A stretch of 10,708 nucleotides of DNA from IMG/VR virus record IMGVR_UViG_2585427768_000002, positions 1-10,708 of that record. One strand, written 5' to 3'. Below are positions 7,653-8,140 of this stretch, piece after piece. This DNA comes from a virus (Duplodnaviria > Heunggongvirae > Uroviricota > Caudoviricetes). Position 1 is the stretch's first letter. Every line of letters starts with the position of its first letter. The notes beneath the pieces were generated by a model that saw only the letters and a list, made by a program, of their open reading frames with translations, did no database searches and was not told where the DNA came from. The position numbers and the translations under genes are program-made.

Positions 7653-7667
7653 CACTTATTTTCCCTG

Positions 7668-7691
7668 GCTCGCTTTTGCGGGCTTTTTTTT
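7668..7691 (+). terminator. intrinsic terminator after the tRNA cluster
   Basis: Stem GCTCGC (7668-7673) / GCGGGC (7678-7683) with one G-U pair, loop TTTT, followed by 8 T (7684-7691). Confidence 0.55.
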
Positions 7692-7888
7692 AAATGTCTC
7701 ACAATTCAGGCGGTTGACTGTTGTCTGGTTTGCGGGGAGTTTGTTAAAAGAAACTGGCATGGTGAATCCCCCTGTGCGGAGGGGCAATCAGCGAGTAGGT
7801 ATATGGGATAATCGCGGATTCAGGTGCTGGTACTGAATTCACCGGGAGGCACCCGGCACCATGCAATGGCACATAGTGCCACTCTCCA

Positions 7889-7914
7889 GCCCCTCTCCGG
7901 AGGGGCTTTCTTAT
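7889..7914 (+). terminator. GC-rich hairpin with T-rich tail (terminator-like, plus strand)
   Basis: Perfect 7-bp stem GCCCCTC/GAGGGGC, loop TCCG, then TTTCTTAT. A near-copy of the motif (15/18 nt) at 7778-7795 forms a weaker hairpin without a T tail. Confidence 0.4.
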
Positions 7915-7917
7915 GGA

Positions 7918-7947
7918 CAAAAAAAGCCCGCGCAGGGAGACGCGGGC
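7918..7947 (-). terminator. GC-rich hairpin preceded by an A-run (terminator-like on the minus strand)
   Basis: Stem GCCCGCG (7926-7932) / CGCGGGC (7941-7947), 8-nt loop. On the plus strand it is preceded by AAAAAAA (7919-7925), which is a T-run after the stem when read on the minus strand. Confidence 0.35.
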
Positions 7948-8015
7948 GGCAAGGAATAAACAACAAAACGTGAAGTAATATTTCAGCTGGCGAATAATAT
8001 CCGACAGTAATCACT

Positions 8016-8038
8016 CTGCGCAATAGCGCGGCCTTTTT
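8016..8038 (+). terminator. weak terminator-like hairpin
   Basis: 6-bp stem CTGCGC/GCGCGG (one G-U pair), loop AATA, followed by CCTTTTT. Confidence 0.3.
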
Positions 8039-8140
8039 CGTATTGCGGGCTGTTGTCTATCTTCTGCCATTGTCCTGTAACTTCCGGACTTCAGCCCGCT
8101 CCTCATTTTACTCACAATATTATCCAGGCCGGGAGGATTC

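Follow-up and report, generated by a model that had tools for sequence, protein, structure and literature searches.

A block of small transcription units between the tRNA genes and nanS-p

We analysed a 10,708-nucleotide (nt) stretch of viral DNA (IMG/VR record IMGVR_UViG_2585427768_000002, positions 1 to 10,708; the window) and, within it, the 488 bp at 7653-8140 that lie between a tRNA cluster and nanS-p, a sialate O-acetylesterase gene. The tRNA cluster, ileZ (CAT)-argN (TCG)-argO (TCT) at 7403-7652 on the plus strand, was identified with ARAGORN, the Rfam tRNA model and the RefSeq annotation of O104:H4 and Sakai Sp4, and forms the upstream boundary of the interval. On the other side, nanS-p (8141-10102) encodes a 653-aa esterase of the SASA family with the Pfam domains SASA, DUF1737 and DUF6645, and its ATG at 8141 follows a Shine-Dalgarno sequence, GGGAGG (8131-8136). 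This plus-strand gene start (8131-8143) was assigned from the ORF list (ORF, open reading frame), Pfam and the RefSeq annotation. Chromosomal prophages of E. coli O104:H4 and related strains carry the interval at 100% identity, and O157, O26, O103, O111 and O145 genomes carry it at 99%. Of 5426 complete E. coli genomes, 2865 have a match, with at most 14 copies per genome. Prophage Sp4 of O157 Sakai matches positions 7403-8200 with 98.7% identity over 798 nt. At the O104:H4 locus of the same sequence, the Q antiterminator gene is followed by two minus-strand genes, a small ORF, an AraC-type regulator, tRNA-Ile(CAT), two tRNA-Arg genes, the SASA-family esterase (nanS-p) and then holin, lysozyme and terminase genes. 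The window region is the late region of a lambdoid prophage.

Convergent pairs of Hfq-binding small RNAs (sRNAs) have been described in the Sakai prophages Sp3, 4, 5, 9, 10, 11, 15 and 17, where they are placed between a moron coding sequence (CDS) and a conserved downstream ORF (Tree et al. 2014, PMC4104026). The Sp5 pair consists of EcOnc27 and AsxR and lies 3' of stx2B (PMC4104026), and a later review calls such pairs 'dyads of Hfq-binding sRNAs'. We propose, with a probability of about 0.9, that the interval at 7653-8140 is a compact block of small non-coding transcription units located between the moron/tRNA region and nanS-p in lambdoid prophages of pathogenic E. coli. In this arrangement, the terminator of the tRNA cluster (7667-7691) would be followed by an empty cargo junction (~7692-7696), a plus-strand Hfq-binding sRNA of the STnc100 family (~7700-7913) with its own terminator, a tail-to-tail minus-strand sRNA of the EcOnc08 class (promoter 8023-7994, terminator 7947-7919) that would also have a longer antisense form, and finally the structured 5' leader of nanS-p with its ribosome-binding site. 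Here we demonstrate the family assignment, the synteny and the stx junction, establish the identity of the RNAs with Hfq-bound RNAs known from experiment, and trace conserved blocks in the promoter, the seed-like regions and the terminator. All components of the interval are already in the literature, the EcOnc08-class partner having been published but having no Rfam model. The value of the assignment is therefore corrective: what looks like a gene-free, terminator-rich leader is a documented prophage regulatory-RNA hotspot and should be annotated as one. At present the RefSeq annotation of it reads 'hypothetical protein' or pseudo-CDS, and spurious ORFs are called in it by phage annotators.

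The coding content of the interval agrees with this assignment. The ORF list holds only frames of 40-67 aa, on both strands, with none longer than 67 aa in 7653-8140, and the statement of the initial annotation that there is no credible ORF is borne out: five of these ORFs, queried against PHROGs, matched no family. Six ORFs were tested against two homologues (87-89% identity), and five of them have a frameshift or an interruption in one homologue or both; the minus-strand 43-aa ORF at 8011-8142 is intact in phi296 and frame-shifted in the Stx2a phage only. One could still argue that the interval encodes at least one small protein, for example one of the PHANOTATE ORFs of phi296 or the RefSeq minus-strand pseudo-CDS. 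Frames of suitable length do exist on both strands, RefSeq lists a partial 'hypothetical protein' equivalent to 7747-7872 on the minus strand, three ORFs have been called in phi296, and a ribosome-profiling (RIBOseq) study found ribosome coverage on some STnc100 copies. However, the frames are mostly broken by frameshifts or stops in the homologues, PHROGs offers no match, and conservation tracks RNA stems and promoter boxes rather than codons. A protein product is hardly credible on this evidence, and we rejected small-ORF coding potential because of the broken frames and the missing PHROG matches.

The plus-strand STnc100-family RNA and the hairpins of the interval

An sRNA of the STnc100 family (Rfam RF02076), equivalent to EcOnc05 of Sakai Sp4, occupies 7728-7918 on the plus strand. 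In cmscan the segment matches the full model (1-206 of 206) with 140.1 bits (gathering score 47, E 1e-31), and its minimum free energy is -77.8 kcal/mol (z -3.2). It is homologous to EcOnc27/sRNA103 and to PasD. The published northern probe for EcOnc05 is an exact match to the minus strand at 7786-7820 and so detects a plus-strand RNA. In addition, the EcOnc05 peak from crosslinking and analysis of cDNA (CRAC) with Hfq falls at 7789-7897 on the plus strand, and the northern band is ~222 nt (Tree et al. 2014 Table S2, mapped via Sp4). The coordinates of that table refer to an older Sakai record, which is shifted by 142 nt at Sp5, and the Sp4 mapping was verified by the probe sequences. The same order of moron/tRNA region, STnc100, and esterase and lysis genes is present in O104:H4, Sp4, Sp5, Stx2a_95 and phi296.

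Judged by the northern sizes of 222 nt (Sp4) and 235/247 nt (Sp5), the plus-strand RNA begins at the border of the conserved module. The true RNA probably starts ~25-35 nt 5' of the Rfam model start and ends in the U-tract at ~7910-7914. At the module edge, a TnAAAT-like hexamer recurs 5-6 nt 5' of TCACAATTCAG in many unrelated upstream contexts. Here it reads TTAAAT (7690-7695, plus strand) and is a low-confidence candidate for a -10 box; a start near 7701 would give an RNA of ~213 nt, compared with the ~222-nt EcOnc05 band. No -35 element was found for this candidate, and the consensus promoter scan did not report the site. A sigma-70 promoter built on the conserved TTGACT (7714-7719) was rejected, as inspection by eye of three homologues gave no acceptable -10 box at 16-18 nt. 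A search by eye for a sigma-54-type motif for STnc100 found none.

Like EcOnc27/sRNA103 and PasD, the RNA has a multi-stem fold with a CCCCU/AGGGG hairpin and a GC-rich terminator, and it lies in the same position, 3' of the moron/tRNA region and directly 5' of the sialate esterase gene. It differs from the Sp5/EcOnc27 copy in the central variable loop (~7786-7830), the Rfam score being 208 bits there and 140 here. Because the seed regions differ, the effects of EcOnc27/sRNA103 on fimZ and espA and the PasD targets from RNA interaction by ligation and sequencing (RIL-seq) are not transferable to this allele. In EDL933, STnc100 copies are transcribed and one 191-nt copy has been confirmed by northern blot. 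The position of STnc100 3' of stx2 and the structural link to STnc100 of PasD, upstream of an esterase gene, are also in the literature. Some IMG/VR contigs carry the RNA in tandem, with two STnc100 core matches 484 nt apart in L013, L020, L027, L040, L083 and L113 and 275 nt apart in L068; a different spacer comes after the first copy, and a partner of the EcOnc08 or AsxR type after the second.

Four hairpins stand out in the interval, and all four fold as the initial annotation described, one being weaker. On the plus strand, hairpin 7667-7684 with a T8 run has a folding energy of -11.4 kcal/mol (z -2.7) and hairpin 7888-7907 one of -17.3 kcal/mol (z -2.9); on the minus strand, hairpin 7947-7926 with U7 reaches -16.7 kcal/mol (z -4.0). 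The weaker one, plus-strand hairpin 8016-8031 followed by CCTTTTTCG, has only -9.1 kcal/mol (z -2.0), and 12 of 200 shuffles were as stable. A GC-rich stem-loop followed by a U-tract, as in rho-independent terminators, is thus found at 7667-7691 (plus), at 7888-7914 (plus, with an interrupted U-tract) and at 7947-7919 (minus), whereas 8016-8038 (plus) is marginal. The first of these (stem GGCTCGC/GCGGGCT and T8 run, recovered by folding and by the terminator scan) is the intrinsic terminator of the ileZ-argN-argO cluster, because it directly adjoins argO and is kept both in the stx-negative phage phi296 and 5' of stx2A in the Stx2a phage. The second ends STnc100. The weak hairpin at 8016-8038 (CTGCGC AATA GCGCGG followed by CCTTTTTCG) overlaps the -35 box of the minus-strand promoter and is kept in loci of both the EcOnc08 and the AsxR type, where the changes are all of the G-U kind and none is compensatory. 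It could be a terminator or pause site, or a palindromic promoter/operator element.

Two similar GC-rich 18-mers had also been pointed out. The pair exists and exceeds chance, since none of 200 shuffles gave a match, but the first copy, CCCCCTGTGCGGAGGGGC, lies at 7768-7785 on the plus strand, ten bases upstream of the position first given for it (7778-7795). By sequence search and the Rfam consensus structure, this copy is the internal CCCCU/AGGGG stem-loop of STnc100, and folding and the Rfam structure place the second (7889-7906) in the rho-independent terminator of the same RNA (7888-7914, plus strand), which ends in the tail UUUCUUAU. Across ~120 copies from IMG/VR viral contigs the internal hairpin is near-invariant, and several subfamilies have unrelated GC-rich terminator hairpins. 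The two 18-mers therefore resemble each other in one subfamily, and the repeat is not a requirement. An obligatory repeat or a switch by alternative pairing is unsupported for the same pattern of a near-invariant first hairpin and unrelated terminators.

The initial annotation recognised the terminator type of these hairpins correctly and read them as stacked terminators in a leader; that second part does not stand, as each strong hairpin ends a separate small transcription unit. In its strict form such a reading would make the hairpins a purely cis-acting terminator stack in an untranslated leader, which would hold nanS-p and the late genes under tight Q dependence and would contain no independent genes. 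The interval does carry three plus-strand hairpins with T-rich tails, terminator-like sites are enriched around it (11 in 6000-8600 against 2.9 +/- 2.1 in shuffles, terminator scan), and it lies in the late operon, 3' of Q and of a PR'/tR'-like region. The sRNA and tRNA terminators very probably create a barrier to transcription as a by-product. Yet the strong hairpins are explained as the 3' ends of the tRNA cluster, STnc100 and EcOnc08. The minus-strand hairpin 7947-7926, the strongest of the four by z-score, faces the wrong way for a late transcript, and the weakest, 8016-8031, is the sole one without a gene. Separate Hfq-bound RNAs, detected as northern bands, arise from exactly this sequence, and stable sRNAs of uninduced lysogens have already been published for Sp4, so that a terminator stack as the sole explanation is improbable.

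Terminators within Q-controlled operons are normal for lambdoid phages. A dependence of nanS-p on Q antitermination is a reasonable expectation from lambdoid biology and would be generic to such loci. The interval resembles the lambda-type late operon (tR'/6S RNA/StxS) in its position 3' of the Q gene and of a PR'/tR'-like segment, but its terminators are not tR'; they are part of tRNA and sRNA genes embedded in the operon.

The minus-strand partner and the nanS-p leader

The second RNA of the block, a convergent Hfq-binding sRNA of the EcOnc08 class, faces STnc100 tail to tail. From the CRAC peak, alignment and folding, its short form is predicted to span 69 nt (7919-7987, minus strand). The predicted RNA has the usual layout of an Hfq-binding sRNA: the 5' part is mostly single-stranded and carries the conserved CUUCACG and UUCCUUGCC, and the 3' part is the terminator hairpin 7947-7926 followed by U7 at 7925-7919. 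Its predicted promoter (7994-8023, minus strand) consists of a -35 box TTGCGC (8023-8018), an 18-nt spacer and a -10 box TATTAT (7999-7994). Among 10 diverged copies that were aligned, the -10 box does not vary and the -35 box hardly does. The seed-like blocks CTTCACG and TTCCTTGCC and the U-run are also kept, as is the terminator, with a few compensatory changes in it. The consensus promoter scan missed 8023-7994, the -35 box matching the consensus at 3 of 6 positions only. AsxR in Sakai Sp5 is preceded by the same -35 block, and its start site was mapped downstream of that block by 5' rapid amplification of cDNA ends (RACE; Tree et al. 2014, PMC4104026). The promoter assignment is supported by this mapped start 3' of a homologous -35 block.

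Published data also place Hfq-bound RNA here. The EcOnc08 Hfq-CRAC peak maps to 7921-7993 and that of EcOnc21 to 7999-8084, both on the minus strand and both with a northern band of ~271 nt (Tree et al. 2014 Table S2, mapped via Sp4). The shared northern probe of EcOnc08/21/42 is exactly the plus strand at 7993-8027 and so detects a minus-strand RNA. Because this probe lies upstream of the predicted start of the short form, a longer minus-strand RNA must also exist, and probe and CRAC peak place the region 7993-8084 under this ~271-nt transcript, antisense to the nanS-p leader. Relative to the EcOnc08/21/42 group (Sakai Sp4 and the Stx1 phage Sp15), the locus is essentially identical to Sp4, with the identity given above and the exact probe match at 7993-8027; it carries the same RNA in the prophage of another strain.

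The Rfam search of the minus-strand RNA gave no family match even at E<=10. Identity with AsxR (RF02703), AgvB (RF02702) or Esr41 (RF02676) was rejected, as none of these covariance models matched at that threshold. The same search finds AsxR in Sakai Sp5 with 88 bits, immediately after STnc100, and serves as a positive control. Matches of the minus strand to OmrA-B, anti-hemB, GcvB and SgrS were driven by the terminator, lay far below the gathering scores and were treated as chance.

Nevertheless, the locus is built like the AsxR and AgvB dyads, in which these RNAs are paired with EcOnc27 and EcOnc06. It shares with them the PR' moron site, the tail-to-tail arrangement with STnc100, the antisense orientation to the late operon, the TTGCGC -35 block with the downstream leader, and the design of a short single-stranded 5' part, a terminator hairpin and an Hfq-binding U-tail. 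The RNA body, in contrast, is unrelated. The published sequences of the conserved ~42-nt 3' region of AsxR and AgvB (AGUAUCUCAUGC...GCCCGAACCCAYUCGGGC) cannot be aligned to 7919-7990: the minus-strand RNA here lacks their AGUAUCUCAUGC block, its terminator is GCCCGCGUCUCCCUGCGCGGGC in place of theirs, and its 5' part is GU/U-rich and not CA-rich. In an alignment of the window with Sp5, only the RNA body (~7919-8010) is exchanged, and the sequence from the -35 block as far as nanS-p is common. The EcOnc08-type loci that we examined, among them those of Sakai Sp4, of a Stx2a phage and of numerous viral contigs in IMG/VR, carry the EcOnc08-class partner. Among Stx2a phages the partner of STnc100 differs, being AsxR in Sakai Sp5 (L125, 2130-2182) and of the EcOnc08 type in Stx2a_95 (L002, 3749-3860); therefore, AsxR is no constant feature of Stx2 phages. 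Several IMG/VR contigs with the end of stx2B also carry the EcOnc08-type RNA.

A tentative extension, which we consider possible but would not rely on, is that the unit at 7987-7919 is a third RNA class in the lambdoid 'anti-sRNA slot', with its own conserved promoter. Its GU/U-rich 5' region, CUUCACGUUUUGUUGUUUAUUCCUUGCC, might serve as a seed of the GcvB type for CA-rich sites in mRNAs, or might sponge another host sRNA, and the long isoform may silence nanS-p in cis. The idea of a GcvB-type seed comes from the composition of CUUCACGUUUUGUUGUUUAUUCCUUGCC, which is GU/U-rich and thus the opposite of the CA-rich GcvB-target mimic of AgvB. If this is true, only the function, the short isoform and the family definition would be new, as the RNA is published as EcOnc08/21/42. 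The function and family definition of the EcOnc08-class RNA would make a reasonable but modest subject for follow-up.

Alternatively, the minus-strand RNA may act mainly in cis, the ~271-nt antisense RNA pairing with the nanS-p leader and start codon and damping leaky expression in the lysogen. The probe at 7993-8027 detects just such a ~271-nt minus-strand RNA; with an end at 7919 it would start at ~8190, inside nanS-p. The promoter scan reports a promoter-like minus-strand site at 8147-8119, which overlaps the nanS-p start, and the leader is covered at 7999-8084 by the Hfq peak of EcOnc21. However, the best-conserved blocks (the -10 box, CUUCACG, UUCCUUGCC and the terminator) make up the short unit 3' of the probe, the EcOnc08 CRAC peak coincides with that unit, and the same slot in AsxR-type loci yields a 54-nt trans-acting RNA from a homologous -35 box. 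We consider a mainly cis-acting role unlikely, though the two modes of action are not mutually exclusive.

The nanS-p leader itself is structured. A long conserved hairpin (CGGGCUG...CAGCCCG) at 8046-8098 on the plus strand has a folding energy of -18.1 kcal/mol (z -3.8), and none of 200 shuffles was as stable. Its arms change coordinately, by eye, in diverged copies such as L029, L072 and L089. RNAalifold applied to the leader hairpins found no compensatory pairs and did not recover 8046-8098, where the alignment breaks. Within the hairpin, the conserved CUUCCGG (8081-8087) is complementary to CCGGGAG of the ribosome-binding site (8129-8135), with no compensatory changes seen. Translational control of nanS-p through alternative pairing of CUUCCGG with the Shine-Dalgarno region is possible from this complementarity.

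Taken together, the block of small transcription units suggests two modes of operation. In the lysogen, each sRNA would be transcribed from a promoter of its own and would work in trans, with the help of Hfq, on RNAs of the host, as in the AsxR/FnrS, AgvB/GcvB and PasD RIL-seq networks. Upon induction, according to established lambdoid biology, Q-modified RNA polymerase starting from PR' would ignore the terminators and read into nanS-p and the lysis genes. Through the sRNA dyads, the prophages that a strain carries are linked to the regulation of their host: FnrS and haem uptake are affected by AsxR, GcvB and amino-acid uptake by AgvB, and variants of the STnc100/EcOnc27 region 3' of stx2 were recently reported as predictors of haemolytic uraemic syndrome.

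Several points weigh against this picture. The trans action of EcOnc05 and EcOnc08 is argued by analogy, and the transcript ends in the window are predicted. The placement of the Table S2 coordinates on Sp4 depends on internal consistency and probe matches. On the plus strand, the 5' end of the RNA is uncertain, with the Rfam model start ~27 nt downstream of the start expected from the northern size, and the conserved module contains no convincing sigma-70 promoter. On the minus strand, covariation in the terminator is modest, with double changes in 2 of 8 pairs, and the sole northern shows ~271 nt with a probe upstream of the short-form start, which makes the 69-nt form a prediction.

The stx slot and the surrounding late region

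Alignments with Stx2a_95 and Sakai Sp5 place the point equivalent to the stx2AB insertion at 7692-7696. After the argO terminator, both phages carry the leader of stx2A, then stx2AB, ~45 nt and then TGTGTCACAATTCAG, so that ~1.4 kb (leader, stx2AB and the ~45 nt) separate the T-run from TGTSTCACAATTCAG in Stx2 phages. In the window the two flanks are only ~3-5 nt apart. The segment 7653-7691 corresponds to the left flank of stx2A, and 7697-8140 can be aligned over its whole length, at 83-87% identity, to the sequence 3' of stx2B including STnc100. Such an alignment is the outcome that the initial annotation had itself named as refuting its reading, and its placement of the leader at the position of stx is right only in part. 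The cassette does map here, but to a point at ~7692-7696, and the remaining ~445 bp is also found 3' of stx2B in Stx phages. Of the two origins it had offered, an empty cargo site proves correct, and a scar of toxin loss is unsupported.

A deletion scar would mean that a former Stx phage lost stx or another toxin cassette from this position, and the juxtaposed stx2AB flanks are what such an event would leave. However, the alignments show no remnant of stx2A, stx2B or the stx leader between argO and STnc100, that is, zero stx-derived bases. In addition, the empty junction recurs in 22 IMG/VR matches, at a near-constant 167-170 nt from the STnc100 core in 20 of them and at 183 and 196 nt in two more; 6 matches have the end of stx2B, and the remaining ones have other contexts upstream. 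The same junction is present in Sakai Sp4 and in O104:H4, O26, O103, O111 and O145 genomes. A recurrent junction therefore fits a stable empty backbone that receives cargo better than recurrent precise deletions, and we regard a scar as very improbable, although the order of insertion and loss is beyond proof from sequence alone.

Further upstream, the segment at ~6115-6330 (plus strand) aligns with the Q-proximal PR'/tR' region of Stx2a_95, including a CCGCC...GGCGGG terminator with T6 (hairpin 6183-6198). Rfam has no model match in this segment, which we take to be a probable homologue of StxS, the early-terminated late transcript of Stx phages. In a Stx2a phage the PR'/tR'-like segment lies directly 3' of Q. 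Here a two-gene minus-strand insert (3670-6062) stands between it and the Q gene (3319-3690). The insert encodes a 404-aa protein without a Pfam match and a 391-aa protein of the NA37/YejK nucleoid-associated family (PF04245); neither protein matched the PADLOC defence models.

The slot 5' of the tRNA genes holds a regulator with an AraC-type helix-turn-helix (Pfam HTH_AraC and HTH_18) at 6661-7374 on the plus strand. In Stx2a_95 this slot is occupied by a DNA methylase, and in Sakai Sp4 by ECs_1087, the same AraC-family gene as here. We assume that the regulator corresponds to the prophage Psr/PatE-type regulators of acid resistance and the locus of enterocyte effacement.

The last tRNA gene of the cluster, tRNA-Arg(TCT) at 7576-7652, differs from its counterparts in Sakai Sp4 and Stx phages by two substitutions, C to A in the T-stem and C to G in the acceptor stem (positions 7637 and 7643), both of which disrupt base pairs. 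Its Rfam score is 53 bits, compared with 68-70 bits in other prophages. Because of the pair-breaking substitutions and the lower score, this tRNA gene may be decaying in the O104:H4-type prophage.

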